Part shown: one piece after another, positions 935-36,143 of the stretch
How the letters are laid out: each line of letters starts with the position of its first letter
Numbering within the stretch: position 1 is the first letter of the stretch
From: a virus
Taxonomy: Duplodnaviria; Heunggongvirae; Uroviricota; Caudoviricetes
IMG/VR virus record: IMGVR_UViG_641522623_000002
DNA: 37,589 nt
Strand: one strand, 5' to 3'
The notes under the pieces: generated by a model
Seen by the model: only the letters and a program-made list of their open reading frames with translations
What the model was told of the DNA's origin: nothing
Database searches by the model: none
Made by a program: the position numbers and the translations under genes

Positions 935-2620
935 GTGAATATAAACGTCGCCGAATTGTTAAATGGGAATTACATTCTGTTATTATTTGTGGTCCTCGCG
1001 CTTGGGCTATGTCTCGGAAAGTTACGACTTGGTTCGATCCAACTGGGTAATTCCATTGGCGTTTTAGTCGTATCGCTGTTATTAGGCCAACAACATTTCA
1101 GCATTAACACCGATGCGCTTAATCTTGGCTTTATGCTGTTTATTTTCTGTGTTGGGGTTGAAGCCGGACCGAACTTTTTTTCCATTTTTTTTCGCGATGG
1201 GAAAAATTACCTAATGTTAGCACTGGTGATGGTTGGCAGTGCGCTGGTGATCGCCTTAGGGTTAGGTAAGCTGTTTGGCTGGGATATTGGCCTGACGGCC
1301 GGTATGTTAGCAGGCTCTATGACGTCGACACCGGTTCTGGTCGGTGCTGGCGATACACTGCGTCATTCCGGCATGGAAAGCAGGCAGCTCTCACTGGCAC
1401 TGGATAATCTGAGCCTCGGGTATGCCTTAACCTATTTAATCGGTCTGGTGAGTTTGATTGTTGGTGCGCGTTACTTGCCGAAATTGCAGCATCAGGACTT
1501 ACAGACCAGCGCCCAGCAAATCGCCCGCGAACGTGGCCTGGACACTGATGCCAACCGTAAGGTTTATTTACCGGTGATCCGCGCCTATCGCGTCGGCCCG
1601 GAGCTGGTGGCCTGGACCGACGGCAAAAATCTGCGTGAACTGGGTATTTATCGACAAACCGGCTGCTACATTGAACGTATTCGACGTAACGGGATTCTGG
1701 CAAATCCAGACGGTGATGCCGTGCTACAAATGGGCGATGAAATAGCGTTGGTAGGCTATCCCGACGCCCATGCCCGACTCGATCCCAGCTTCCGTAACGG
1801 TAAAGAAGTTTTCGATCGTGACCTTCTCGACATGCGTATCGTCACTGAAGAAGTGGTCGTTAAAAACCATAACGCTGTAGGTAAACGTCTCGCACAACTG
1901 AAGTTGACCGATCACGGTTGCTTCCTTAACCGCGTCATTCGTAGCCAGATTGAGATGCCGATAGATGACAACGTCGTGCTTAACAAAGGTGACGTTTTAC
2001 AAGTCAGCGGTGATGCCCGTCGCGTAAAAACCATCGCCGATCGCATCGGCTTTATCTCGATTCACAGCCAGGTCACTGACCTGCTGGCATTTTGCGCCTT
2101 CTTTGTTATTGGGCTGATGATCGGGATGATCACCTTCCAGTTCAGCACATTCAGTTTCGGCATGGGGAACGCTGCCGGGTTGTTATTCGCCGGAATTATG
2201 CTGGGCTTTATGCGTGCTAACCACCCGACCTTCGGTTACATTCCGCAGGGTGCATTAAGCATGGTGAAAGAGTTCGGCTTGATGGTGTTTATGGCAGGCG
2301 TTGGTCTGAGCGCCGGTAGCGGTATTAATAACGGCCTGGGCGCGATTGGCGGTCAGATGTTGATTGCCGGATTGATTGTCAGTCTGGTGCCCGTGGTTAT
2401 CTGTTTCTTGTTCGGTGCTTATGTATTGCGAATGAACCGCGCGCTGTTGTTCGGCGCAATGATGGGCGCACGTACCTGCGCGCCGGCAATGGAGATCATC
2501 AGTGATACAGCTCGCAGTAACATCCCGGCGCTGGGCTATGCGGGCACCTATGCAATCGCCAACGTCCTGCTGACGCTGGCAGGGACAATCATCGTCATGG
2601 TATGGCCAGGATTAGGATAA
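935..2620 (+). CDS. ybjL: Putative AAE-family transporter YbjL (two membrane domains flanking TrkA-C/RCK-C-like soluble domains)
   Basis: 561-aa ORF with hydrophobic N- and C-terminal halves and a soluble middle; matches the recalled E. coli YbjL. Confidence 0.88.
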
Positions 2621-10144: not shown

Positions 10145-10717
10145 TCAGGGCGATTCATTGTTCTCATTCGCCGGAAATTTTCTATAAATGGTAGAAACGC
10201 CCACATCAAAAATCAGTGCAATACGCTGTCTTGATTCTCCGGCCTCGAGTAAACGTCCAATCTGTGCCCACTGTTTGGTAGTCAACTTAGGACGGCGTCC
10301 ACCTACTCTGCCTTTAGCACGAGCTGCAGCCAGCCCTGCCCTGGTACGTTCAACTATCAGTTCGCGTTCCATTTCAGCCAGGGCACCCATGACATGAAAA
10401 AAGAAACGGCCCATTGGGGTACTGGTATCAATACTGTCAGTCAGACTTCTGAAATTCACGCCGCGCTGGCGCAACTCTTCTATCAGAGTAACAAGATGCC
10501 GCATACTGCGCCCCAACCTGTCCAGCTTCCAGACAACCAGTGTGTCACCTGCCGATAGTGTCCTGAGCAGCTTTTTCAGCCCCGGTCTGTCGGACTTGGT
10601 GCCACTGATTTTATCCTCAAAAATCCGCTCACATCCCGCGCAGTTCAGTGCATTACGTTGCAAATCGGTGTTCTGGTCATTTGTTGACACGCGTACATAG
10701 CCAATAAGCATGATCAT
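10145..10717 (-). CDS. Serine-recombinase DNA invertase (Gin/Cin/Pin/Hin family)
   Basis: 190 aa; N-terminal resolvase catalytic domain (GYVRVSTNDQ with the active-site Ser) and C-terminal HTH; sits immediately beside a crossover site. Confidence 0.9.
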   Translation of the reverse strand: MIMLIGYVRVSTNDQNTDLQRNALNCAGCERIFEDKISGTKSDRPGLKKLLRTLSAGDTLVVWKLDRLGRSMRHLVTLIEELRQRGVNFRSLTDSIDTSTPMGRFFFHVMGALAEMERELIVERTRAGLAAARAKGRVGGRRPKLTTKQWAQIGRLLEAGESRQRIALIFDVGVSTIYRKFPANENNESP

Positions 10718-10738
10718 CCCTCTGAATAAAAACCGGAG

Positions 10739-11272
10739 ATGATGCCAGTTAGCCGTAATCTCTGCATTTTCATAAACGTTGGTTTGGGAGAAGGCTCAGC
10801 ATTACCCGTTGGCGTGCCTGTTCCGTGGCCTTCCGCCACTCCGCCAACAGGCTGGCTGAAATGCAACGGTGCGGCTTTTTCTGCTGAAGAATACCCGGAA
10901 CTGGCAAAGGCTTACCCGACAAATAAATTACCTGATTTACGCGGTGAGTTTATTCGGGGCTGGGATGACGGGCGTGGAGTGGATAACGGAAGGGGATTAT
11001 TAACGCTTCAGGATGGTGCTATTGTCAGTCATAACCACTATTGGGGAATCTGGACTTCACGAACTAACGACCAGACTCTGGAAAGTTTTACAGGCACCAC
11101 GATTTTAAAACAAATCACGCCCCTGTCTCCGTCCATTGACTTCGATAATTACCCAATTCCCAACCCGGCTATTACAGAGGGTGGTGTTGTTGCGGCAACG
11201 ACTAAACCTGCAGGTGCGAATGAAACACGCCCACGAAATGTCGCTTTTAACTATATTGTGAGGGCTGCATAA
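10739..11272 (+). CDS. Alternative tail-fibre C-terminal segment (silent orientation, Sv'-like)
   Basis: ORF begins at the crossover site and shares the GLGE junction codons in frame with H; it would fuse to the H constant region after inversion. Confidence 0.7.
   Translation: MMPVSRNLCIFINVGLGEGSALPVGVPVPWPSATPPTGWLKCNGAAFSAEEYPELAKAYPTNKLPDLRGEFIRGWDDGRGVDNGRGLLTLQDGAIVSHNHYWGIWTSRTNDQTLESFTGTTILKQITPLSPSIDFDNYPIPNPAITEGGVVAATTKPAGANETRPRNVAFNYIVRAA
10767..10792. repeat. Invertase crossover site, left (ttttcataaacgttggtttgggagaa)
   Basis: Inverted copy of the site at 12622-12647; lies at codons ...FINVGLGE of the silent tail-fibre C-terminus ORF. Confidence 0.75.
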
Positions 11273-11874
11273 TGAATAACGCAGAATTAAACAGTGAATT
11301 AATTGCCACTATGGCAGGAGAAATTACTGTTTATAACTTTGATGTCATGAGTCGGGAATATATTTCAGCTTCAACTGAATATCTTGCTATTGGTGTCGGC
11401 ATTCCGGCATATTCCTGTTTAGATGCCCCAGGCACATACAAAGCTGGTTATGCAATCTGCCGATCTGCAGATTTTAACTCATGGGAATATGTACCAGACC
11501 ATCGCGGTGAAATCGTCTTTAGCACCGAAACAGGAGAATCAAAAGAAATCACAGCTCCGGGTGATTACCCTGATAATACAACCACTATCGCCCCGTTAAC
11601 GCCATACGATAAATGGGATGGTGAGAAATGGGTGACGGATACCGAAGCACAGCATAGCGCCGCAGTAGATGCAGCAGAAGCACAGCGCCAGTCACTGATT
11701 GATACTGCAATGGCTTCAATCAGTCTGATTCAGCTGAAATTGCAGGCCGGACGTAAACTGACGCAGGCAGAAACAACCCGCCTTAACGCTGTGCTGGATT
11801 ACATTGACGCGGTGACGGCAACAGATACCAGCACAGCGCCGGATGTCATCTGGCCTGAACTGCCGGAGGCGTAG
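11272..11874 (+). CDS. Tail-fibre assembly chaperone (alternative, U'-like)
   Basis: 200 aa immediately after the alternative fibre tip; conserved Tfa C-terminus (...LDYIDAV...WPELP). Confidence 0.75.
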   Translation: MNNAELNSELIATMAGEITVYNFDVMSREYISASTEYLAIGVGIPAYSCLDAPGTYKAGYAICRSADFNSWEYVPDHRGEIVFSTETGESKEITAPGDYPDNTTTIAPLTPYDKWDGEKWVTDTEAQHSAAVDAAEAQRQSLIDTAMASISLIQLKLQAGRKLTQAETTRLNAVLDYIDAVTATDTSTAPDVIWPELPEA

Positions 11875-12265
11875 GCCATTCAATATCTGGGGCACTGGAG
11901 GTATCCACCAGTTCCAGTGCGTCCAGGTAATCCAGCCACAAATTATATTGCGCCAGTTCCTCACCTTTCAGACGACCAATAGCGGCTTTACCAGGCCATT
12001 GCTTACTGTTCATGTATTCGTTGGCCTGTTCAATAAGTATACTTTTCATTCCCTCCGCTTCAGCTATTTCCTGTTCCTGTGTCTTCGCTGGATATTCAGT
12101 AAGTACAGGGTAGTTATCCGGGTTATTGATAATAATTTTCCCCGTACTCTGACCATTCATAAGTTCATAATAAAGAGCATCTTCAATATCGAAAGCATCA
12201 TCGGGAATATCGTTGTTGTTTTCAGAGAAAAATCCCTGAACAGATGGGGACCATTTCATTTTCAT
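11846..12265 (-). CDS. Tail-fibre assembly chaperone gpG/U (expressed orientation)
   Basis: 139 aa directly downstream of H; C-terminus ...[11 protein letters not shown]...WPTPP is typical of Tfa; converges on and overlaps the U'-like gene. Confidence 0.8.
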
Positions 12266-13683
12266 AATTTCCCAATTCCTAAAATGTGGACGTCATCAGC
12301 CTTACGGGCATTCCAGGTGACAATTACATCGGTAGAGTGACGATTAACTGAGATTGCGTATGCTTCGTTAGTCGAGCCAGAAACTTTTGTAGCAAACACA
12401 GCAAACAGGACACCAAATGACTGGGGCCATTTATAGCCTGACAGCTGATAATTACCATTATTCAGTGTTACAGCTTTGGCTGCTGCACTTGATGGAATCG
12501 TCAGCCACTGGAGTATCAACCCTCCTGGCAAAAGTTGTTTTCCGTAATAATCCCTCACCCCACTAAATGAAACCATGTCCGGTATCTGATTTTCCCCTGT
12601 GCCCACATCCCGTTTTGCCGCCTCTCCCAAACCAAGGTATGTGAGAAGACCAGCTACATCCTTTCCACTCAAATTGGTAAGCGTATTGTCCAGCGGTTGT
12701 TTACCTGACAGCGCATTAAGCATTGTCGTGGCAAAGTTCGGATCATTCCCCAGTGCCGCCGCCAGTTCGTTCAGTGTATCCAGTGCCGCAGGTGCAGAAC
12801 CCACCATTGCCGCAATCGCCGATTTCACAAATGCCGTGGTGGCAATCTGTGTATTGTTGACCGACTGCGCCGCCGTGGGGGCTGTTGGCGTTCCGGTGAG
12901 TGCCGGACTCGACAACGGTGCTTTTAGTGCCAGCGCATTGTTAATGGTGGTACTGAAATTCGGATCATTGTTAATGGCTGCGGCTATTTCTTTCAGCGTG
13001 TCCAGCGTGGCTGGCGCACCATTAATAAGGGCCGTCAGTGCCGCCTGTACAAACGCAGTGGTCGCAACCTGCGTGGTATTATTCCCCGCCGCTGGCGTTG
13101 GCGCTTTGGGGGTTCCGGTAAATGTCGGGCTGGCTTTTGGCGCGTACTGTGAATGCGGGTCCGGTGCGGCAAGATGTTTTGCCATCTGATCATCCGCGTA
13201 CACCTTCAGCTCCAGTGCCTTGTCATCCACATACTTGCGGGTTGCCAGCACTACAGCAGGGTCGATTTTCAGGGTGATATTGTCCGTGCTGCTGGTAATC
13301 AGCACCATGCGCACGGTCTGAGTGCGCCCGCTACCTTCAGCCAGTTGCGGCTTATAGCTTTCCGGGCAGTTGCCCACGGCAATCAATGCCCCGGACTCAT
13401 CAAACAAGCCCACTTCACGTATCCACCAACCGCCCTCGTTTTCAGGGATCACCTGTTCGGCAATAATCTGGCTGCTGTTCTGCGGGTCGATATAAAGCAT
13501 ATTCAGCGCAGCCCGGCGTTTCTCATTTACCAGTGCCGTCTGCTTTGCGTCCGGCGTTGGCAATACTCCACCGCCATCGCCCACCGCCATATGGGTAATT
13601 TTTAGCGGCACACCGAGCGCGGCGGCGCTGGCAAGTTTCGCCGCGCCAATATCCGTCAGCAGGGTATAAAATTTTGTGCTCAT
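12262..13683 (-). CDS. Tail fibre protein gpH (constant N-terminal region plus currently joined variable C-terminus)
   Basis: 473 aa; P2-H-like N-terminus; internal tandem repeat of about 70 aa; crossover site inside the gene at 12622-12647. Confidence 0.88.
12622..12647. repeat. Invertase crossover site, right (inside H)
   Basis: ctctcccaaaccaaggtatgtgagaa, the inverted partner of 10767-10792. Confidence 0.75.
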
Positions 13684-16233: not shown

Positions 16234-17745
16234 TTATTGCCTAAGTTTAGGCTTGATAATTCCTAGTGCATCCCACAAACCACAGTGTATTTCAAAATTC
16301 AACGTTGGGTCCATTTCTAAATCTTCATCATTAAATGACCACAAATAAACATCTCCGCCATCTGTTTTAGATCTCCTGAGTACATTCCCGATAGCACCGA
16401 CTTTAAATAAACAACTCAGTATTTTATTAAGCGTTAATGTACCATCTCCTAACTTCAATTCTTCAAATTTTTCCTTGATTAAATGTGGAGTGAAACCTCT
16501 TTTTTTTAATGAACGTAAAAGAGAAAAACTGTCATCTATTTCTGAATCACTTAAATGTCCCGCAAGCTCAGATCTAATTTCACGTAAAAGATAAGATGAG
16601 TATTTTTTAGAAATCTTTGTAAACATGGAACTTTCAAATCTTTCAGTATTTTCTCCATATTCATCTTGAATATAAGTTAGCATCCTAACGGCATCTCTTG
16701 GGCGACCTAGAGTTCTATGTAAAATATAAATAGAGCTATGCTCACCTGCAACTCTCTCAGTGAAAATTTTCCCGAACAAATTAGAACCATTTAAATCATT
16801 ATAATAATCAGTGGAGTTTTTGATCTTAAAAGCAATCATATCAAAAATCTCAGAATCACTTGCTCGTTCTCCAGCAGAACACCAATCAAGTGTAACAGAG
16901 TTATCTTCAATGATTTTATTAATATTCGGCGATGAAAAAGTATTTATTATATCATGACGAATAACTGCACCAATTTTAGCATCTATTTTATTTTGCATTA
17001 GAGTTTTATTAATTGACACAACAGCATTTAAAAAACTTATCATTGCATTTTTATATTCAACTGTTGCATCAAACTTATCATCTAACTCATCATAAAATAC
17101 ATATATTTTTTTATTACTCTCTTTTAGCATGTCAACAATAAAACACTGCAAAGATTCCATACATTCCAAATAATTCTTTTTTGTTTCTTTTGTTTTCTCG
17201 ACCTCACCATCTTTTGCTTTGGCTTCACCACGTAATACTGGGAATCTAAATCCGATACCAACCTCACCCGACGCTTGGTACTCCCTAGTTATTTCAACTG
17301 TTTGCTCAGGCCTTAACTCGCCCGCGACATGGCCAAAAGAACGTAAAAAACTTTCCAAATGAACTATTTTATCCTCACTAAATCCTTTTTTATTACTTAC
17401 AATATTCTTAGCAAGATTGACCAATATCATCCACTTGAAAATTGGTACATATTTTGTGGAAGACACATCCTGCCCCTGAAAGTGAGTAAGTTCATGAAAA
17501 ACAAAATCTTTTAATGATTCCACAACTGCAATATAATTATTTTTTCGCTTGGCGTTACAGTAGACATTAACAAGCAATGTCTTACCCGTCCCCTTCCTGC
17601 CAATTACGAGCATTTTATTTTTTCTATCAAGTTTACTTAATGAATTATTTATATCATAAAAATATTTCGAGTAATTATCGAGAAATAATACCTCATTCTC
17701 TCCATAAACCTCACCAAATTCAAAATCACCAATTTTGGGGCGCAT
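16234..17745 (-). CDS. AT-rich cargo gene: P-loop NTPase of unassigned family (candidate anti-phage defence protein)
   Basis: 503 aa; Walker A GRKGTGKT (aa 49-56, encoded about 17578-17601); Walker-B-like IYVFYDELDD; GRPRD sensor/arginine-finger-like motif; codon usage and base composition are visibly AT-rich compared with the flanking S and V genes; own terminator. Confidence 0.75.
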   Translation of the reverse strand: MRPKIGDFEFGEVYGENEVLFLDNYSKYFYDINNSLSKLDRKNKMLVIGRKGTGKTLLVNVYCNAKRKNNYIAVVESLKDFVFHELTHFQGQDVSSTKYVPIFKWMILVNLAKNIVSNKKGFSEDKIVHLESFLRSFGHVAGELRPEQTVEITREYQASGEVGIGFRFPVLRGEAKAKDGEVEKTKETKKNYLECMESLQCFIVDMLKESNKKIYVFYDELDDKFDATVEYKNAMISFLNAVVSINKTLMQNKIDAKIGAVIRHDIINTFSSPNINKIIEDNSVTLDWCSAGERASDSEIFDMIAFKIKNSTDYYNDLNGSNLFGKIFTERVAGEHSSIYILHRTLGRPRDAVRMLTYIQDEYGENTERFESSMFTKISKKYSSYLLREIRSELAGHLSDSEIDDSFSLLRSLKKRGFTPHLIKEKFEELKLGDGTLTLNKILSCLFKVGAIGNVLRRSKTDGGDVYLWSFNDEDLEMDPTLNFEIHCGLWDALGIIKPKLRQ

Positions 17746-26268: not shown

Positions 26269-26586
26269 TTATATACCACATACAAAATTGATCTTAACGC
26301 TTTTATCAACAACAAGCAGAGAAGTGCCAACAGACTTAATAAATCCCAGTTCATACTCTTCTGAATGCGTCATTGTAATAATATGAACAGGAACAAATAA
26401 ATCAAGCTCCCGCAGCTTTCGCTTCAATAATAAACCATCGACACAATCACCTATCACAAGCATATCAATATCATTTGCATCGCAAAAACTCTTTAATGCT
26501 GACCCAAATACATATACATCCACCATATATAAACTATGATGGATAATAACATCACAGATCGATTCAATCGTATGTTTAAAATTCAC
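26269..26586 (-). CDS. Minimal nucleotidyltransferase (Pol-beta superfamily, MNT-like), third gene of the cargo operon
   Basis: 105 aa; GS-x9-DxD motif (VYVFGSALKSFCDANDIDMLVIG); 1-nt overlap with the upstream gene; AT-rich. Confidence 0.7.
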   Translation of the reverse strand: MNFKHTIESICDVIIHHSLYMVDVYVFGSALKSFCDANDIDMLVIGDCVDGLLLKRKLRELDLFVPVHIITMTHSEEYELGFIKSVGTSLLVVDKSVKINFVCGI

Positions 26587-27245
26587 TACCGTGAAATTCT
26601 TCGTAATAAATCACCCAACTTGTAAAGCTCCACCCCGATACTTTGAGCAGCCTCTTTTGCCTGAGTCGTCAATCGTCCATTAGGATTGGAGGAAAAAACA
26701 ACATCACAATTGCCATGCAACCCTATCGCATCTCTTACAGAACCCGCTGTCATATCATAATCATTCGCAGCGATAATAACTAAGTCCGCCAAGCCACGTC
26801 TTTTAAGTCTATATTTTTTGTTGGTTTCTCGCTCTACAGAGCTTACATGTGAATGTTGATTGAACACTCTATTTATAAACAAATGCTCTTTATCAAGATG
26901 CTCAAGCGGATTATTAGCTCTTAAGGAAGATGCAATATGCCCAAATGAACCCACTCCTATTTTCTTTTGTTCTAGTAATCTCATTGCATCACCAGAGATA
27001 AATTCAACACCTCCCTTGACTGATAGAAAATCAATTTTTTTATTGTCTAGGTATTCATTTATCTCAGGACATGTTATCCGGCCAGTATTGATTGCCCCGA
27101 TCAAATAGGTGTCACCCTGTGTAGTATTAATCACTAAAGTACCATCATCTATCACCTCTATATTTTCGACACATTTATTTTCTTGTAATTTTCCTGCCAT
27201 CCATGAAATATAGCCTTCACTCGCATTTATGCTCATTGGATTCAT
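26586..27245 (-). CDS. Hypothetical protein, middle gene of the cargo operon (possible HEPN-like Rx4H motif)
   Basis: 219 aa; translationally coupled on both sides; contains RVFNQH; no confident family assignment from sequence alone. Confidence 0.6.
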   Translation of the reverse strand: MNPMSINASEGYISWMAGKLQENKCVENIEVIDDGTLVINTTQGDTYLIGAINTGRITCPEINEYLDNKKIDFLSVKGGVEFISGDAMRLLEQKKIGVGSFGHIASSLRANNPLEHLDKEHLFINRVFNQHSHVSSVERETNKKYRLKRRGLADLVIIAANDYDMTAGSVRDAIGLHGNCDVVFSSNPNGRLTTQAKEAAQSIGVELYKLGDLLRRISR

Positions 27246-27937
27246 CCTATAAATAGTTCAGATGCAGCTTCTGGAAACCTACTACCATTAGCATCGGTTA
27301 AGCCCAAATGTTTTGATTCAAAGTCATCTATATGAACACAAAGCTTTGAAAAAACATTCTTCTCATCTTCACTCATGAGGTGATAGTTTTGTTCAACCAG
27401 TCGCTGTACTTTTCTATTGTTGGGTAAGATATGAGATTGTACTTTTCTTAACCATACTTCTGCATTTGGATTTTCAGGGTCAACGCTGTTCTCTTGGGTT
27501 GGTCCATATGTTACAAAAATGGTATTGTTTTCTCTGAAGTATTTTTCTAACTCCTGTCTAACAGATTCTCGATTGTCATATGTTTTAACACCAAAGGTTG
27601 CATTTATTTTATCAATATGGCCGTTTTTCCAAGAACGGATAATTTCATCAGTAAAATGTTCCTCTGCCTTATCAATTGTCGTATGGCAATTAGCACATAG
27701 AAGAATAATGTTGTCAAAATGACCTCTCTGCTCATCAGTTAGATCAGCATTGGTTCTAGGTCCATTATCAATGGCACTAAAAATGTGAGCAAGTTCTCCA
27801 ATTGTTATATTTTTGTCGCCAGCATCAACAAACAAAGGTTGCAAGCATTGTGGATTTTGGCAAAAGCCACCTGAGCTGGCAAAAAGCCGTCTAACTGTAT
27901 TAGCGTTTGGAGAAGCTTTTCCCCTACTGCAAGCCAT
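27242..27937 (-). CDS. HNH-motif nuclease-like protein, first gene of the cargo operon
   Basis: 231 aa; CQNPQC...GELAHI...NIILLCANCHTTID (Cys pair, His, Asn, C-x2-CH) typical of HNH/His-Me finger nucleases; AAGG ribosome-binding site upstream. Confidence 0.7.
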   Translation of the reverse strand: MACSRGKASPNANTVRRLFASSGGFCQNPQCLQPLFVDAGDKNITIGELAHIFSAIDNGPRTNADLTDEQRGHFDNIILLCANCHTTIDKAEEHFTDEIIRSWKNGHIDKINATFGVKTYDNRESVRQELEKYFRENNTIFVTYGPTQENSVDPENPNAEVWLRKVQSHILPNNRKVQRLVEQNYHLMSEDEKNVFSKLCVHIDDFESKHLGLTDANGSRFPEAASELFIG

Positions 27938-28009
27938 GAACTAACCTTAAAAGTATAGAAATTAGGATGTTAATTTATTACTGAACAACCCTATAAGCAA
28001 GCTTGCTAA

Positions 28010-28070
28010 TTGTGGTGAGCGCGCGCTCGTATCCCCGCCACGCCTGCCCGCTTTATGTAGTGGTTTTTAT
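28010..28070. other. Putative cos site (terminase cleavage / cohesive-end region)
   Basis: The minus strand reads GGCGTGGCGGGGATACGAG (28026-28044), matching the recalled start of P2/186 cohesive ends (GGCGTGGCGGGGA...); lies between the Tum operon side and Q as in P2/186. Confidence 0.5.
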
Positions 28071-28092
28071 GCACCTGCATGATCTACGCAAA

Positions 28093-28112
28093 AGCCCGCC
28101 AGAACTGGCGGG
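28093..28112 (-). terminator. Terminator hairpin downstream of the lipoprotein gene
   Basis: gcccgcca-gaac-tggcgggc; on the minus strand it is followed by TTTTG. Confidence 0.5.
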
Positions 28113-28217
28113 CCTTAACACAAAAGATCCTCAAACGATCATGCGATCTCATGCAGCATAGACATGCGCGTTTATGCAGAATGTGCAAAATCGTAACATA
28201 CTCAGTAAGCGTGAAAC

Positions 28218-28895
28218 CTAGAACGTGACAGCCTTGTCAAAGCCAGAAATAATTGTATAAGAAATAGACGAGTTATCAGCCTTGTTCACTTTGAACTTGG
28301 CACCTTTGTAAGCGATAACATCACTTCCCTTAGAATCTACAGAAAAATCTGTTGTAAATGCTGCACGAGCCATATCGTTTGCAAATTCACGATAGGTGAA
28401 CTTCATTACACCGCCTGCATTTCCATTGTATTCGATAGTCTTAACCAATGAATTACTCACTCGACACAGCCCATCAGGAACACGTTTGATAGAAATTTCT
28501 GATGCAGTATAAGAAGTGCCATTTGGCGGTGATATCTCATTTTTTGCAGCATCGTAACTAACATAATCAACATAGTTACCGATTTGCCCATAGAGATTTT
28601 TTAACGCAACAGCTTGAGGGTTATGATAATTGCGGTAAATTCCATTCCCCTCACTGCAATATGTACCAGCAGCGATAGAAGACAATGCACCATTAGCCGC
28701 ACCAAGTTCTAGTACGTCCGTTTTAAATCCAGTAGCAGATGTGATAATGGGATCGCCCATGTAGGCGGTAGCACTTTGCCCAATAGCTGGCTTCACCACT
28801 TCAATAGCAGTGATATTTCGGTTAGAAGCATGTGGCACGCAACCAGTTAGGATTACAGCAAGAGATATTGGTAACGCTACATTATTAATTTTCAT
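28218..28895 (-). CDS. AT-rich cargo gene: predicted lipoprotein of unknown function
   Basis: Signal peptide MKINNVALPISLAVILTGC with lipobox LTGC; about 225 aa from this Met (the ORF track extends to 28949); AT-rich; between the Tum operon and cos. Confidence 0.65.
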   Translation of the reverse strand: MKINNVALPISLAVILTGCVPHASNRNITAIEVVKPAIGQSATAYMGDPIITSATGFKTDVLELGAANGALSSIAAGTYCSEGNGIYRNYHNPQAVALKNLYGQIGNYVDYVSYDAAKNEISPPNGTSYTASEISIKRVPDGLCRVSNSLVKTIEYNGNAGGVMKFTYREFANDMARAAFTTDFSVDSKGSDVIAYKGAKFKVNKADNSSISYTIISGFDKAVTF

Positions 28896-29008
28896 TTTTA
28901 GCCTATTATTCTTTTCTTGACAAAAAACAAGGCGATATCTGATTGACATCGCCTCTCACTCATATGTAACCCTTTTTGATTAGTAAAAACAAGCGTCTAT
29001 TGACAAAA

Positions 29009-29593: not shown

Positions 29594-31966
29594 TTAATAC
29601 AGGTTCCGCCACTTATCATCTTCCCGCAAACGTTGGTTCCGATAGAAGATACGCAGGCCTGCTCCTGACGGAATACTGCCGCCGCGAAGCAGTAAATCGA
29701 CCTCTTTCTCGCTGCCATCAAATCCCCTGGACTTCAGTTCATACACGAGCTGCTGTCGCTGATGATCTGTAATTCGCTGTTTGTAGTCTTTACGCCGTTT
29801 CGGTTTCACCAGGCGTAACCTTGCTGCCAGTTCCCGGCGCTCTTTTTTGTTCATACTGTGCAGGTAATCGTGCAACTCCTTGTCATCCATGCGGGTGATA
29901 TCCGTTCTGGTATCTCCATCAGCTGATTTGTCTTTCGCTTGTTGGTACAAATTTTCAGCAAGGGGACAGTTATTGCCACGAGTCCAAGGGGTGCAAGCGC
30001 CCTGGTCGGCTGCCGCCTCCTGAACATCAACGGCCTTACGAACCATTTTCCACTTCACGGCATGAGTGCAGATCTTGCCCTCTGCAATAGGTGACCAGAT
30101 GCCATAAATACGAATGCCGTGATCGCCATAGGCGGTCGGCTCTTCGTTGATTTCATAAGCGGTTCTGATGAGGTGATATTTGCGGGGAACCAGTACGCCG
30201 CCCTGCTTCATGATGTAGGTGGCAAAACAACCAGCATCAGCAGCAGCCAGGATGGCATCAAGGTGCGGGTTATCCAGTACCGGCGCACCTGCTTTTTTGT
30301 CCCCCTGTTGCCTTGCCGCCTGACCAGCCAGCAATCGCAGTTCACGGTAAGCCTGACGCCCCGGAATGCCAAAGAAGCGGAATTGCTGAACACGATGCAG
30401 AGACGCCCAGGCATTAACGTATTCAGCATTATCACGCAGGGATTTCCCCGTTTCCTTGCTGATCTCGCCAGCCAGACCACGCCCGTCAATGTTCTTACTG
30501 ATGTATTTCGCGATGTAGCTTGTTGGCGTACCTTTGCGCGGGTTAATCAACTCAGACTTAAAGCGCGGCCCAGTGTTATTGCCCAGTTCCTCGCGGTCTT
30601 CACGGATGGCAAACTTACGCAGTAATGCAGTGATGGCGCGGCGGTCTTTTTTGCGCATAAAACACAACAGGTGCCAGTGAACTGTACCGTCATGATGCGG
30701 CTCAGCCACCCGCACGCCATACCACCGCAATCCGGCTTTGTGCATCGCCTTACGAAATGCAGCAAACATGCCGACCAGATAATCACTGCTTTGTCTTACC
30801 GTCGCATTTGTCCAAGTTGGGTTGGGCCTGCCATTATTTAGCGTGGAATGGAAACGTGACGGACAGGTGATGGTGTAGAAAACGGCGCAGTCACCGCGCA
30901 TTTCCGCGATAAGCTCCAGGCCTTTAACACAGGCCATCATCTCATTGCGGCGATGCGCAGGGTTGCTGCTGCTGGCGTTTACCACATCCTCCATGTCCAG
31001 CGTGTCGCCGTCTTCGTTCACCAGTTCATGAGAACGAAAAAACTCCAGCGACTTACGGCGCTGCTCACGTTTATGCATCACGGCTTCATAGCTGACATAG
31101 GGAGATGCTTTTTTGCTGACCAGGCAGACAGCACGCAACTGCTCTTCCCGCCATTCGCAACGCATCTTCCATAATTTCCGGTACCACCAGTCAGCGCACA
31201 ACATACGCGCCAGCGAACCCGGAATGAGTTCATAGGGCACGGGTTTACGGCGGTTTCTTTTCCGGCGGAGTTGCTCAAACGCAGGCGGGATGACATCCAG
31301 ACGTAGGGTTTCCGCTGCCACCTTTTCCCATGTCTTGCGGATTTCTTCTGGCTTAACGTCATCGGTGACATACAAATCGCCACAAGCTGCATCAAGGCAC
31401 ATGCTCATATGCGCAGCTACCAGGGTGGACAGGCGTTTCACCTGATCCTGACTCATTTCAGGCAGGATCAGCAGGCCGTCCAGCCCTTCATGGCTTGCCA
31501 TAAAGCGAAAAGAAGTGGATAGCTGACAGTCGCGTACATGCTCCAGCCGTTCCAGACATGGCTTAATCGTCTCACGCAAATAGCGGGAATAAGCCTTTGG
31601 CCTGCCCAGGCTGCTGAAGTATTCAATACGTTGCATCAGCGGCTTGCTGATATGGGAAGGCTGGGCATTGACGTCCGCCAGAATGACCATATCTGGATTA
31701 AAACGCTGCTGCTCATGCGCCAGCTTTGCCCGACTAATGAGCTTATCCTGCTCCATTTCGCGCTGGACAGGATCACGGGATTCATTAAAGAAATAACGCT
31801 CCCAGACCTGATCACTCAGTGCTTCGCGGCGCAGCTGTTCCTGCTCGTTATCGGCAGCGTACAGAGCGATCAGGTTTGAAAGCGCAGAAACTGAAGATTG
31901 CTCTTCTGTCTCTACGTAAGGATTGATTGCTTTTTTCTCAGCATTCCAGGAATAGCTGTAGTTCAT
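29594..31966 (-). CDS. Replication initiation protein gpA (rolling-circle nickase)
   Basis: Large ORF in the P2 gene A position. Start chosen at the Met whose ATG overlaps the upstream stop (TAATG) and has a GGAG ribosome-binding site; the ORF track extends to 32017. Confidence 0.8.
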
Positions 31967-32796
31967 TACGCAATCTCCAGTTCGAGCTGTGAAGGCTGCA
32001 AACCATTCGACAGCCAATCAGAAACTGAAGGTGGGCGAACAGCTTCAATTGCACCTTTTAAAATTGCGCAACGGTTTTTCAGAATGACAGCTTTCAGCTC
32101 CTTTTCCGTCAGATTGCGCGAATATTCAGCCTCCTGAATAGCCCGCGTCAGCTCAGGATATTTGCTATTAAATTTGGGGACATTGCAGGCAAGATTTGTA
32201 CTGTCGGCAGTCGCCAGTGGGTAATTTCCCAACACACGACCGTCAAGCATGCGCAAACCATGAACAGCTGTTTTGAAATTGTGTCGGCAATAAATTGCTT
32301 CAAAAGCGTCCTGCATACGACGATGCCAGTGCGCAGTTCTGATAGCCGCATATTCACCAGACGATCCAAAGCAGACACGAGGCCATTCACGACATAGCTC
32401 GATAAGCCGATCGATTGACTCGTGCAGATGCCAGACGGGAGTTGCCTTCCCGTAGAACATTTTCGGAACTTCGTTTATCAGGGCATCATTGTCACGTTCA
32501 CCTCCGTCCACAACATCAGGAATGACAAAAAAAGCGACCTTAGGATGGTGGTAATAGTTCAGGAGCCATTTATAAAAATCACTCCAGTTAATTTTTAGCC
32601 CACGCACCCATGCAGAAAATGCGCCGTTATCAATGCCGACGACCTGAGCGTGCTGAATGGACGCCGCAATCTGATCTGGTCGTACATAGGAGACGAAAGC
32701 GCCAGCTCCGCTCACCGCAATACGATGAACGTCGCCAGCACTTCCCCAGACAGGCGTCCCATGGAAATGATGAATTCCGTGGTGCATTTCTTTCAC
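31966..32796 (-). CDS. Hypothetical protein, translationally coupled between the Dam methylase and gene A
   Basis: 276 aa; His-rich N-terminus; no family recognised from sequence alone. Confidence 0.6.
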
Positions 32797-33647
32797 ACTT
32801 GCACCCCGAAAATAACAGTAGAGTCACGTCCCCTACTAAAATCGGCACTAAACCAATTAGCAGATTTAGTGGCAATCATCTCTGTTGCAAATTTTCCCTC
32901 CCCCGCTGCAACGCCGATGCTGCGTTTCGCCCTGATGTAGTGGTGAGTGAAATTACGATAAAGGGACCGGGTCAAAGACGTGTTACTGTTAGAAACAATG
33001 ACCGGATGTCCTTCTGATGACCGATGTTCAAGAATGGATGCCAGGTGATACTGATCATCTTCAGTGAAACCATCAGTGTGATAGCCGGAAAACGTACCGT
33101 CATAAGGCGGATCGCAATACACCACATCCCCCACCTTCAACATCGCCAGCGTTTCATCAAAGCTGGCGCAGATAAACGTTGCCCACTGGGCTTTCTCTGC
33201 AAATGCGCGAATTTCTTTTTCAGGGAAATACGGATTTTTATAATTACCGTAGGGAATGTTGAAATGTCCGCTCTTGTTATAGCGACATAAACCACGGTAA
33301 CCGTGACGATTGAGATACAGGAAATATACCGCTTTCATGAAATCAGTAATTTCAGTGGAGTAATTAAACTCCTGCCTTATGTTGTAATAAGCTACCTCCC
33401 TGTTTGCTTCCTCAAATAAAGCTCTGGCACGAGATATAAACGCCTCACAATCAGCAGCAACCTTTTTATAGAGGTTGATTAAATCAGGATTAATATCCGC
33501 AACAAGATAGCTGGGGTAATCCGTCTCCATCATCACTGCACAGGAACCCGCGAAAGGTTCAACCAGTCGCGGGCCAGCAGGAAGATGCTTTTTCAGTTCG
33601 GACATTATGGCGGTTTTATTTCCTGCCCATTTCAGGATGGTGCTCAT
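32793..33647 (-). CDS. DNA N6-adenine methyltransferase (Dam-like)
   Basis: DPPY catalytic motif ([10 protein letters not shown]) and an AdoMet-binding N-terminus (EPFAGSCAV); start set at [11 protein letters not shown] (ATGA overlap with the upstream gene). Confidence 0.8.
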
Positions 33648-33871
33648 ACAGCACCTCCGTTGTAATGTTTGCCTTTCAGCTCTGCGATTTCCTGACAGGT
33701 AATGCAAAGCTGCACACCCGGAATGGCACGGCGGCGTGCTGGCGGAATTGGCGCTTCACACTCAACGCAAAGCACGCGGGACACGCCCGGCGTTTTGGCA
33801 CGGGCAGCACGGATATGGCGTTGGCGTTCTTCTTCAACGCGCTGCTGTACGAGATCCATTGCATCAGCCAT
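33644..33871 (-). CDS. TraR/DksA-family C4 zinc-finger protein
   Basis: 75 aa with CVEC-x17-CITC. Confidence 0.7.
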   Translation of the reverse strand: MADAMDLVQQRVEEERQRHIRAARAKTPGVSRVLCVECEAPIPPARRRAIPGVQLCITCQEIAELKGKHYNGGAV

Positions 33872-34513: not shown

Positions 34514-34707
34514 TTGTTCCCCCGTTTTTTCGTAGATAGTTCTGCCAGCAATTCATCTTGTGAACGGCACGGATGCCAGCGTTTACCATCCTCACCCATG
34601 ATCCAGCCGTGACCGTAGTGCATTGCCGGACTTTGTTTTACCAGCAGCGATGCAAATGATGGTTCGTTCGTCAGCATAAGCACCTCACAGCAAACCGAAT
34701 GAAGCAC
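34477..34707 (-). CDS. Hypothetical early-region protein
   Basis: 76-aa ORF between the CII-like gene and downstream genes. Confidence 0.45.
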   Translation of the reverse strand: MLHSVCCEVLMLTNEPSFASLLVKQSPAMHYGHGWIMGEDGKRWHPCRSQDELLAELSTKKRGNKWLLKALRRLFH

Positions 34708-35200
34708 CGAGGCCAGTCACGGTATCAACTGCACTCGCCATCGCAGGATTAGCCTGTAAACGGGCCTGCAATGAAACAGCAGCCAGCGCCATCAGTCGTG
34801 TAACAGAGTTAATGCTGCTGATCGCATCACGACGGCCTGCACTGGTTTTTACATCGCCAGAAACCGCACCTGCCGCGACACGCCCTATCTCTGCAGTTGC
34901 ACTCATGACGTAATGCGGCAGTTTCTCTTTTGCTACCTCATTAATCGGTACACATGGCAGGCAGTGAATCTGTGCCAGAAAGCCATCTACCAGCGTTGAA
35001 TCTTCAGTCAGATCGGTAAGCAACCAGATTTCTGGTGCGGTTAATAAATGAGGTTGAGCTGGGTTCAGCTTGTTCCGCAGAATCTGCACATTCATGCCTG
35101 CACGTTCTGCCAGTTGCACTAGGTTGTGGCGCAATGCGAATGCACGACAGGCTTCATCAAAATGTGGATGTTTGGAAACTTGGTAATCAAACATGGTCAA
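34685..35200 (-). CDS. Phage 186 CII-like lysogeny-establishment protein (P2 gene-B-position protein)
   Basis: 171 aa immediately after the Apl/Cox-like gene; size and position fit 186 cII; assignment is by synteny and recollection. Confidence 0.5.
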
Positions 35201-35448: not shown

Positions 35449-35573
35449 GATGCAACATTCCTCGTTTAATGATGATTAATCAGGACGAATACGGATCGTT
35501 TGTATTTTGTGAACACCATAAACATACGATCGCACAGTGAAATCGTCAAGATAAAAGTTCACTTGGAGTGACC
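35449..35573. promoter_or_regulatory. Lysogeny/lysis switch region (pR/pL and operators)
   Basis: 125-bp intergenic region between the divergent apl-like and cI-like genes; contains repeated atcgt/acgat elements. Confidence 0.55.
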
Positions 35574-36143
35574 ATGAATTTGGAGAAAGGCGGACGAGGC
35601 GCTATAGAGCGCATGGTAGAAGCTTATGGATTCAAAACTCGACAGGCGTTGTGCGATCATTTAGGAATCTCTAAAAGTACACTCGCCACACGCTACATGC
35701 GTGACTCATTCCCAGCAGAATGGGTAATCCAGTGCGCCCTTGAAACGGGCACCTCGCTTAATTGGCTCACAACCGGACATGGTTCAAAGCAAACTTCAGG
35801 TAATACAAATACTATGGAAGTTGCTAAATATGTATTATCTGATGGTGCCTTGCGTGAAGACGGTTTTTATATTTTTGATAAGGGATTTCTACCCTCTACG
35901 TTTAAAAAACCTTTTGTCATCACAGATAAAAATTCTGAATTTATTTGTGATAAAGAATTTGATGATATACGTGACGGTAAATGGGTAATAAGTATTGATG
36001 GCGAAATAACAATCCGCGACATTACTCGTTTACCCGGTGGAAGAATCTTCGTTGAAGGTGGAAACAGAGCCTTCGAGTGCAAGATAGAAGATGTTGAAAT
36101 AATTGGGAAAATTATAAGTTTAACAATTAAGTACGTTAGGTAA
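35574..36143 (+). CDS. cI: Immunity repressor CI (phage-186-type, two-domain)
   Basis: 189 aa from the ATG preceded by GGAG (the ORF track begins at a GTG at 35568); N-terminal HTH (ALCDHLGISKSTLATRYMR); size as 186 CI. Confidence 0.7.
   Translation: MNLEKGGRGAIERMVEAYGFKTRQALCDHLGISKSTLATRYMRDSFPAEWVIQCALETGTSLNWLTTGHGSKQTSGNTNTMEVAKYVLSDGALREDGFYIFDKGFLPSTFKKPFVITDKNSEFICDKEFDDIRDGKWVISIDGEITIRDITRLPGGRIFVEGGNRAFECKIEDVEIIGKIISLTIKYVR

Follow-up and report, generated by a model that had tools for sequence, protein, structure and literature searches.

The DNA analysed here, referred to as the window, is a stretch of 37,589 nucleotides from a prophage of Escherichia coli ATCC 8739. Searches with P2 proteins (tblastn) recovered a syntenic series, Q, P, O, N, M, L, X, R, S, V, W, J, I, H, FI, FII, E, T, U, D and ogr, as well as int and A, at 30-67% identity; for the syntenic late genes, the range is 37-67%. 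The prophage carries a late-gene set of the P2 type in P2 order, as in Peduoviridae, and is apparently complete, with an immunity region of the 186 type that includes CI and CII and suggests induction through the SOS response. Within the late genes lies a module made up of an invertase gene, two crossover sites, two sets of fibre-tip and chaperone genes and the tail fibre gene H. This functional unit reaches past the range given in an earlier note on this DNA, to position 13683, where the constant part of H begins.

The invertase gene (10145..10711, minus strand) encodes a 188-residue serine DNA invertase of the Pin/Gin/Cin/Hin subclass. Its maximal open reading frame covers 10145-10717, and the start backed by homology (MLIGY...) is at 10711, as in RefSeq. 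The protein has the architecture of the Din family, i.e., it is small, with a resolvase-type catalytic N-terminus (Resolvase, PF00239, 2.3e-53, residues 5-137) and a C-terminal helix-turn-helix (HTH_7, PF02796, 3.1e-15, residues 140-183). It aligns over its full length with the Gin structures 3uj3 and 4m6f (PDB; 1.8e-92, residues 1-183) and is 84.8% identical to e14 PinE, 76% to Gin and 78.6% to P1 Cin. Read by position, the active site is intact (Y5, R7, the catalytic S9, and R42), and D64, R65 and R68 are present in a WKLDRLGRS motif. In the alignment to Gin, a Ser occupies the position at which the crystallised mutant 3uj3 has Ala. Residues unique to invertases are basic ones at Hin positions 47, 48 and 51 in helix B, and Q151, R154 and L155 in the first helix of the DNA-binding domain (PMC3798978). 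The enhancer-contact residues are kept here as K46, K47 and R50 in helix B and as Q150-I-G-R153-L154-L, in Gin numbering, which is Hin numbering minus 1. A scan for promoters and terminators picked up a weak hairpin at 10750-10731 (minus strand), between the crossover site and the invertase start, which we leave uninterpreted.

The module contains two 26-bp crossover sites of the hix/gix/pix type, each with a 12-2-12 layout and mutually inverted. The invertase-proximal, pix-type site (10767..10792) reads TTTTCATAAACG-TT-GGTTTGGGAGAA, and the distal site (12622..12647), which is located inside gene H, reads CTCTCCCAAACC-AA-GGTATGTGAGAA. Since the plus-strand cores are TT on the left and AA on the right, they are identical in inverted orientation. 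The inverted-repeat arms (10767-10791/10792 against 12622/12623-12647) are 84% complementary over 25 nt, or 21/26 by count, with a perfect central block of 13 bp. The analytic estimate for chance inverted repeats of this quality is about 0.05 per 5 kb, or about 2.7 when all of the window is considered, so the repeat statistic alone is only moderate. The empirical shuffle count was noisy, as overlapping registers were counted, and our argument rests on the identity of the sites instead. The proximal site matches the e14 site beside pinE at 26/26 positions and aligns with Mu gixR; both sites align with gix, and an idealised consensus for invertase sites finds the distal one (1 match, 0.00 expected). 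As judged from sequence, it is this identity, rather than the repeat statistic, that settles that the sites are genuine. A search of the whole window with the 26-bp consensus (at most 8 mismatches) returned these two sites and no third. A match at 29628 in a core-only scan was rejected as an extra site, being at chance level, and a multi-state switch with more than two crossover sites, like p15B Min, the three-site prophage of enteropathogenic E. coli (EPEC) or shufflons, was rejected because there are two sites only.

Two convergent cassettes, each composed of a fibre tip and a chaperone, lie between the sites. The constant N-terminal part of H (residues 1-353; 12636..13683, minus strand) is outside the invertible segment; it matches the N-terminal Phage_tail_fib family in Pfam (5.5e-65) and is 45% identical to P2 H. 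Tip A, which is currently expressed, forms the C-terminal end of the 473-residue H reading frame (residues 354-473, 120 aa; 12262..12621, minus strand) and matches the C-terminal region of phrog_2557 (2e-31). It is followed by chaperone A, a TfaP-like tail-fibre assembly protein of 139 aa that is also currently expressed (11846..12265, minus strand; Caudo_TAP, 4e-24; 50% identical to e14 TfaP). The silent tip B (10739..11272, plus strand) has its own upstream ATG at 10739, and the 160 residues that follow its GLGE peptide are a tail collar domain (Pfam Collar, 9e-16; phrog_523, tail collar fibre, 2.6e-76). Tip B is 58% identical to e14 StfE and shares with it the junction peptide FINVGLGEGSALPVGVPVPWPSATPPTGWLKCNG. 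RefSeq annotates it as a free-standing gene. Its partner, the silent TfaE-like assembly chaperone B (11272..11874, plus strand), has 200 residues, matches Caudo_TAP (4e-33) and is 88.5% identical to e14 TfaE. The 3' ends of the two chaperone genes overlap by 29 nt. The tips share no sequence relationship: B has a collar domain and A a phrog_2557 region.

Both site arms encode G-L-G-E in frame, in H and in the silent reading frame "...FINVGLGEGSALP". When the segment, 1855-1856 bp from core to core, was inverted in silico, residues 1-353 of H (...GLGE) were joined in frame to the 160 residues of tip B, giving a protein of 513 aa in place of the present 473 aa, and chaperone B moved along with its tip. 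The locus has the elements of invertible tail-fibre segments such as Mu G, P1 C and e14 P, with a constant part outside and two opposed sets of tip and chaperone that both fuse in frame. The earlier note had proposed a Gin/Cin/Pin-type serine invertase, inverted sites at 10767-10792 and 12622-12647 on in-frame GLGE codons, and an exchange of the last ~120 aa of H and its chaperone for a silent 160-aa tip and chaperone. The family matches and the intact active site bear out the first of these; the coordinates are correct, with the 26/26 identity to e14 placing the sites in the Gin/Cin/Pin family; and the reading frames and the in-silico fusion agree with the rest.

Public genomes contain both orientations. 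That of the window is found at 100% identity in NZ_CP022959.1 (ATCC 8739) and in KCTC 2571, and the junction predicted by in-silico inversion is found at 100% identity in NZ_CP033020.1 (also ATCC 8739) and in B-3008. In NZ_CP033020.1, 8,800 bp are an exact substring of the inverted window, which places the exchange within 10779-10791, a 13-bp interval that includes the core. Strain 13TMH22 carries a 97%-related phage as a chromosomal copy and as a 36-kb circular copy; flipping one copy at the sites makes the two identical over 6,796 bp, and they differ solely by this inversion. The constant part of H has the same sequence in both states. Among complete E. coli genomes (at least 80% coverage), the junction of H with tip A and that with tip B were each present in 21; as assemblies carry only a consensus orientation, they are evidence of past switching and not of its rate.

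RecA can act on inverted repeats to invert the DNA between them, and a segment flanked by repeats can be placed in the wrong orientation during assembly, so that the difference between assemblies might reflect either process. We give this practically no credence: at just 13 bp, the identical block is much too short for RecA to use efficiently and much shorter than a sequencing read, the inversion recurs at these sites in two unrelated data sets (NZ_CP033020.1 and 13TMH22), and the sites match a dedicated recombinase family. The assemblies bear equally on whether the locus is a fossil, in which sites and invertase gene remain, the segment no longer inverts and the silent cassette is dead cargo. 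The free-standing annotation of the silent tip in RefSeq and the pseudogene flag of e14 stfE would fit such decay, as would the promoter scan, which gave no convincing sigma-70 promoter for the invertase between the crossover site and its start codon. A dead switch is nonetheless extremely improbable, given that assemblies of the same strain, and even the two copies in the single 13TMH22 assembly, are otherwise identical and hold both orientations, that the catalytic and regulatory residues are intact, and that both cassettes are full-length reading frames matching their families. A single orientation paired with an inactive invertase, which the earlier note had named as the outcome that would speak against switching, is contradicted by these same assemblies and by the intact active site.

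It had also been suggested that a Fis-dependent enhancer be sought in the 5' part of the invertase gene, and a putative recombinational enhancer was found there by pattern match (10627..10689). It consists of two 15-bp Fis-consensus sites, at nt 23-37 and 71-85 of the invertase coding sequence, with centres 48 bp apart; measured to the middle of the left crossover site, the distances are 97.5 and 145.5 bp. At the sequence level, this is the layout of a Din enhancer, i.e., two Fis sites 48 bp apart and about 100 bp from one crossover site. The paired motif had 3 matches in the whole window against 2.6 expected and, being degenerate, is not significant alone; the weight therefore rests on positional homology within conserved coding sequence. 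An equivalent pair occupies the same coding positions in pinE, gin and cin, and falls within cin nt 19-90, the stretch that the P1 record marks as an enhancer. The inter-site ATTTG...TAATG seen here corresponds to ATTTA/TAATG of the Hin enhancer (PMC3798978).

The putative enhancer bears on which enzyme inverts the segment. Din invertases cross-complement, and inversion of the e14 P segment has been reported for each of PinQ, PinR and PinE (PMC12529663). Considering also that the left site here has the same sequence as that of e14, another Din-family invertase of the host, such as a cryptic-prophage Pin, might drive inversion in trans in place of the adjacent gene. We regard this as very unlikely, as the adjacent gene is intact and has its own putative cis enhancer at the canonical distance of ~100 bp, and as the circular phage copy in 13TMH22 carries the same invertase. 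The cis and trans explanations are not mutually exclusive.

Taken together, these data make it highly probable that the locus works as a DNA-inversion switch with two states, belongs to the Gin/Cin/Pin/Hin (Din) type and sets the tail-fibre tip of this P2-family prophage of E. coli ATCC 8739. Direct support comes from the layout of the locus, from fusions that stay in frame, from catalytic and enhancer-contact residues that are intact, from enhancer motifs at the homologous position and from inversion in nature. In the mechanism that we propose, invertase dimers would bind the two 26-bp sites, which would then synapse with the Fis-bound enhancer located within the 5'-terminal 90 nt of the invertase gene, at ~100 bp from the proximal site; Fis would probably be needed, as in Mu G, P1 C and e14 P. 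By analogy with the same three systems, exchange would take place at the 2-bp core: the serine enzyme would cut at the central TT/AA dinucleotide, half of the complex would rotate by 180 degrees, and religation would leave 1,856 bp inverted. The first 353 codons of H would stay outside the segment, as would the H promoter, the position of which is predicted from the organisation of the P2 V operon. In the orientation of the window, H1-353 would be expressed with the 120 aa of tip A, and chaperone A after it; in the other, H1-353 would be expressed with tip B (160 aa, the StfE-like collar domain), followed by the TfaE-like chaperone B. As orientation would determine which tip is expressed, we propose that a population of lysogens releases two types of virions with different receptor-binding tips. 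A difference in host range between them may be expected, again from Mu G, P1 C and e14 P.

The conserved ATG at 10739 opens a short reading frame across the proximal crossover site, and inversion would therefore also toggle a free-standing tip protein. An ATG-initiated orphan frame exists in both states (177 aa here, 136 aa in NZ_CP033020.1), and its architecture and junction peptide are as in e14 stfE/stfE2. If expressed in the lysogen, its product would be a possible phase-variable receptor-masking factor, and the switch might act mainly there, with a free tip protein blocking receptors against superinfecting phages. That this is its main role seems quite unlikely. The scan of the plus strand gave no promoter-like site upstream of 10739, which is just 27 bp from the invertase start; a blastp comparison showed no similarity between tip A and the StfP tip from which e14 StfE2 is formed; and the claim for e14 StfE2 is based on overexpression and docking. 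A role in the virion suffices for an element that lies within a complete P2-like late operon. That one switch serves both virion host range and defence of the lysogen, through phase-variable receptor masking or superinfection exclusion as claimed for e14 StfE2, we likewise consider improbable. The switch of the tail-fibre tip in the virion remains our preferred reading.

As such, the ATCC 8739 switch is an ordinary case of a long-known phage system. Among its closest counterparts is the e14 P segment of E. coli K-12 (stfP-tfaP/tfaE-stfE/pinE, with PinE), which has the same gene order, i.e., constant part, tip, chaperone, convergent chaperone, tip, site and invertase, and whose two chaperone genes likewise overlap by 29 nt tail to tail. 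However, e14 is what is left of a lambdoid prophage, defective and with its fibre gene truncated, whereas H is here full-length and of the P2 type; the e14 distal site and the one here differ in the outer half, the e14 tips are unrelated to all of tip A and to the receptor-binding middle of tip B, and its segment is 1,797 bp long compared with 1,856 bp. The stfE gene of e14 is flagged as a pseudogene. Mu G/Gin and P1 C/Cin follow the same logic, with constant Sc outside the segment and alternative Sv and U cassettes inside, and share both the architecture of the 26-bp sites and a Fis enhancer at the same codons in the 5' part of the invertase gene. They differ in the size of the segment (3 kb in Mu, 4.2 kb in P1), in the core (GA in gix, AA here) and in their tips, chaperones and phage backbones, and in P1 it is the 3' end of cin that faces the segment, unlike here.

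An invertible fibre module in a P2-like phage is not unusual. Invertases are frequent at the P2 Z/fun hotspot (bioRxiv 10.1101/2024.10.15.618418), and Peduoviridae that carry one include the Escherichia phages Cartapus, 500465-1, pro483 and P88, Klebsiella phage KP12 and prophages of EPEC E2348/69. In these, as here, the slot of P2 Z/fun between H/G and FI is occupied by the invertase and the invertible fibre module. Their DNA is 93-98% identical to the module over 49-78% of the 3.8-kb query, the partial coverage being due to tip and chaperone cassettes shuffled between members. Phase-variable inversions in e14 and in EPEC P2-like prophages have been seen by sequencing, and in e14 also by PCR (PMC4272514). 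One of the EPEC prophages can adopt four states through three sites, compared with two sites and two states here. A literature search found no report of the ATCC 8739 prophage inversion itself.

The finding opens no new question; its main relevance is to annotation, and it serves as a practical warning. ATCC 8739 is a widely used quality-control and reference strain, and since its prophage is phase-variable, a 1.86-kb inversion is a legitimate difference between independent "complete" genomes of the strain. In annotation pipelines, the silent fragment of the tip is wrongly given a gene of its own. The locus would also be one further instance of host-range bet-hedging through invertible tail-fibre cassettes.

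With regard to origin, the module had been described as a mosaic acquisition, in contrast to P2 itself, which was said to lack such a switch. The GC content, 0.40-0.50 within the module and 0.55-0.60 in its flanks, supports acquisition, as does the DNA of the invertase, site and tfaE, which is 84-88% identical to the P-segment/pinE region of e14; this is one further instance of cassette shuffling between e14-like and P2-like elements. The statement on P2 holds as well: its H and G are fixed, and the slot of the invertible module, between G and FI, is occupied by fun(Z), with no invertase.

The gene at 10145-10717 (minus strand; maximal ORF, 190 aa) has a homology-supported start at 10711, giving a protein of 188 aa (MLIGYVRVST...) with Pfam Resolvase and HTH_7 domains. 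Residues 1-183 match Gin crystal structures (E = 1.8e-92), Ser9 is present, and the protein is 84.8% identical to PinE of e14, a cryptic prophage of Escherichia coli K-12, 76% identical to Gin of Mu (both by blastp) and 78.6% identical to Cin of P1. The domains, the structural match, these identities and the intact active site bear out its proposed assignment as a Gin/Cin/Pin-type serine invertase. Residues described as unique to Fis/enhancer-dependent invertases (McLean et al., PMC3798978) are retained: the basic K46, K47 and R50 of helix B (Hin 47, 48 and 51), and Q, R and L of helix 1. An invertase at least 60% identical is encoded in 102 phage records.

Beside this gene, two fibre-chaperone cassettes converge. 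According to the ORF map, the silent cassette on the plus strand consists of a 177-aa tip with a phage tail collar domain (10739-11272) and a 200-aa TfaE-like chaperone with a Caudo_TAP domain (11272-11874). The expressed cassette on the minus strand comprises the tail-fibre gene H (12262-13683, 473 aa), which has a P2-type N-terminal fibre domain, and a 139-aa Caudo_TAP chaperone (11846-12265). The chaperone genes overlap tail to tail by 29 nt, as they do in e14. An 18-nt inverted repeat (11793-11810 and 11919-11936, 89% complementary) flanks this overlap and probably reflects a conserved C-terminal chaperone motif (LDYIDA/LDYLDA) coded on opposite strands.

The best inverted repeat of the region has 25-nt arms at 10767-10791 and 12623-12647 (84%); over 26 nt the arms match at 21 of 26 positions, with a perfect block of 13 bp. 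Both have the 12-2-12 layout of hix, gix, cix and pix sites: the left site, beside the invertase, is TTTTCATAAACG-TT-GGTTTGGGAGAA and the right site, inside H, is CTCTCCCAAACC-AA-GGTATGTGAGAA, so that the 2-bp cores coincide when one site is inverted. By chance, about 0.05 repeats of such quality would be expected per 5 kb, and about 2.7 over the window as a whole. The repeat statistic thus does not settle the matter by itself; it is the identity of the sites that decides their assignment. The left site and the pinE-adjacent site of e14 are identical at 26 of 26 positions; the left site also aligns with Mu gixR, and the right site was recovered by an idealised-consensus search (expected hits, 0.00). 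Each site reads G-L-G-E when translated in frame with the fibre ORFs. The repeat search and the ORF map thus confirm the 26-bp inverted sites on GLGE codons (10767-10792 and 12622-12647) proposed in the earlier note. Consensus and further site scans of the whole window revealed no third crossover site.

We inverted the segment in silico, taking the central dinucleotides as points of exchange (10779/80 and 12634/35; 1,855-1,856 bp core to core). H residues 1-353 (...LLTYLGLGE) then join GSALPVGVPVPW... in frame, giving a 513-aa fibre with the TfaE-like chaperone directly downstream. The variable parts are 120 aa in the current tip (tip A) and 160 aa in the silent tip (tip B), as expected if the last ~120 aa of H and its chaperone are replaced by the silent tip and chaperone. 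The switch would thus exchange the fibre tip together with its chaperone behind a constant H N-terminus; cleavage would be expected at the 2-bp core, and the two orientations may differ in host range.

Sequenced genomes contain both states. The window sequence recurs with 100% identity in E. coli ATCC 8739 (NZ_CP022959.1) and KCTC 2571. An 800-bp query across the predicted inverted junction is matched at 100% over its full length by strain B-3008 and by a different ATCC 8739 assembly (NZ_CP033020.1). An 8,800-bp region of NZ_CP033020.1 is an exact substring of the in-silico inverted window and is absent from the native one. The repeat arms disagree at the last outer base and the twelfth inner base, which places the exchange within 10779-10791, core included. 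In strain 13TMH22 (NZ_CP019257.1 and NZ_CP019256.1), a 97%-related phage is present twice in a single assembly. Its chromosomal copy shows the inverted state, and the window-like state is found on a 36,172-bp circular replicon ("plasmid") that is probably the phage genome after excision or during replication. These copies are identical over 6,796 bp after one is inverted at its sites, and otherwise show 1,350 mismatches. Among complete E. coli genomes (coverage at least 80%), the H-tip A junction occurs in 21 and the H-tip B junction in 21. The exact NZ_CP033020.1 and 13TMH22 matches contradict a fossil switch whose segment no longer inverts. RecA-mediated inversion or an assembly artefact is an implausible source of the orientation difference, as the identical block is only 13 bp and inversion is seen in two independent data sets. 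Catalysis in trans by other Pin invertases has been reported for e14 (PMC12529663); it may also occur here but need not be invoked. Where the earlier note had named a single orientation and an inactive invertase as evidence against a switch, both orientations occur in assemblies and the active site is intact. Overall, the best explanation, and a very likely one, is a working, Fis-assisted, two-state Pin/Gin-type switch. It has practical value for annotation and explains why ATCC 8739 reference assemblies differ.

A Fis enhancer had been suggested within the 5' part of the invertase gene. The degenerate consensus KNNYRNNWNNYRNNM identified a pair of candidate Fis sites exactly 48 bp apart (CDS nt 23-37 and 71-85; window 10627-10689), and pinE, gin and cin have a pair at the same CDS positions; in the P1 record, the cin enhancer is annotated at cin nt 19-90. 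Measured from the middle of the proximal crossover site, the two Fis-site centres are 97.5 and 145.5 bp away, compatible with the ~100-bp loop of Hin, and the minor-groove contacts of the Hin enhancer, ATTTA/TAATG, correspond to inter-site ATTTG...TAATG in the window (PMC3798978). The degenerate pair motif has 3 matches in the window versus 2.6 expected, and the region is conserved coding sequence; the putative enhancer is thus a case of positional homology, not proof of Fis binding. Fis dependence of the switch would be expected by analogy with the Mu, P1 and e14 systems.

By tblastn, the window has matches to P2 proteins at 30-67% identity, arranged as in P2 (Q, P, O, N, M, L, X, R, S, V, W, J, I, H, FI, FII, E, T, U, D, ogr, int and A). 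P2 itself lacks such a switch, as previously stated: it has fun(Z), without an invertase, between G and FI, and the invertible module therefore sits in the Z/fun hotspot. The immunity region, with CII (34685-35200, minus strand) and CI (35568-36143, plus strand) of the 186 type instead of P2 C and cox, makes the prophage a 186-like member of the P2 family. A Dam-type N6-adenine methyltransferase gene lies at 32793-33707 (minus strand), and the host flank carries a YidE/YbjL-type transporter gene (935-2620, plus strand). Mosaic acquisition of the module is supported by its GC content (0.40-0.50 versus 0.55-0.60 in the flanks), by DNA identity of 84-88% to e14 across pinE, the site and tfaE, and by the same gene order in e14 (stfP-tfaP/tfaE-stfE/pinE). 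The e14 tips are unrelated to the middle of tip B and to all of tip A, which is the usual cassette shuffling.

Parts of the module are common to 70 phage records, including the P2-like phages Cartapus, 500465-1 and pro483 and a series of Klebsiella phages. Phase-variable inversions have been shown in e14 and two P2-like EPEC prophages, one with three sites and four states (Goldberg et al., PMC4272514), and a DNA invertase with inversion of adjacent genes is often seen at the P2 Z/fun hotspot (2024 preprint, bioRxiv 10.1101/2024.10.15.618418). The switch is therefore of a typical, already described kind; our literature search turned up no publication that deals with the element of ATCC 8739.

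Inversion also gives a new tip to the short ATG-initiated ORF (10739 onward) at the invertase-proximal junction, and e14 stfE/stfE2 have the same architecture and re-tipping. RefSeq calls the silent tip fragment an independent gene in both states, each time from a shared ATG that precedes the crossover site (window 10739-11272, plus strand, WP_012304890.1, "phage tail protein"; 2507-2917 of the region from NZ_CP033020.1, WP_265078192.1, "hypothetical protein"). That this ORF blocks adsorption to the lysogen in a phase-variable manner is highly improbable, as a promoter scan showed no evident promoter for it and the e14 tip concerned has no relation to tip A. Between the proximal site and the invertase start codon lies a weak terminator-like hairpin (10731-10750, minus strand; 6 pairs, then a T-rich tail), which could keep transcription of the late H operon from running on into the gene for the invertase to some extent.

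Additional genes occupy other slots of the backbone. A 503-aa gene between the S and V homologues (16234-17745, minus strand; the slot of P2 orf30), designated "P-loop ATPase, Sll1717 family" by RefSeq, has no match in Pfam or PADLOC; against P2 Fun(Z), tblastn gives a weak hit (24% identity, 399 aa). The gene may serve lysogenic conversion or defence and have moved relative to its place in P2. The slot that is the old/tin hotspot of P2, flanked by the portal gene Q and the replication gene A, holds three accessory ORFs (26586-28949, minus strand). The outer two (219 and 243 aa) have no matches; the middle one (27242-27937, minus strand, 231 aa) has an HNH nuclease domain, with hits to PDC-M68A, a candidate system in PADLOC (2e-29), and to the HNH models for CBASS effectors.
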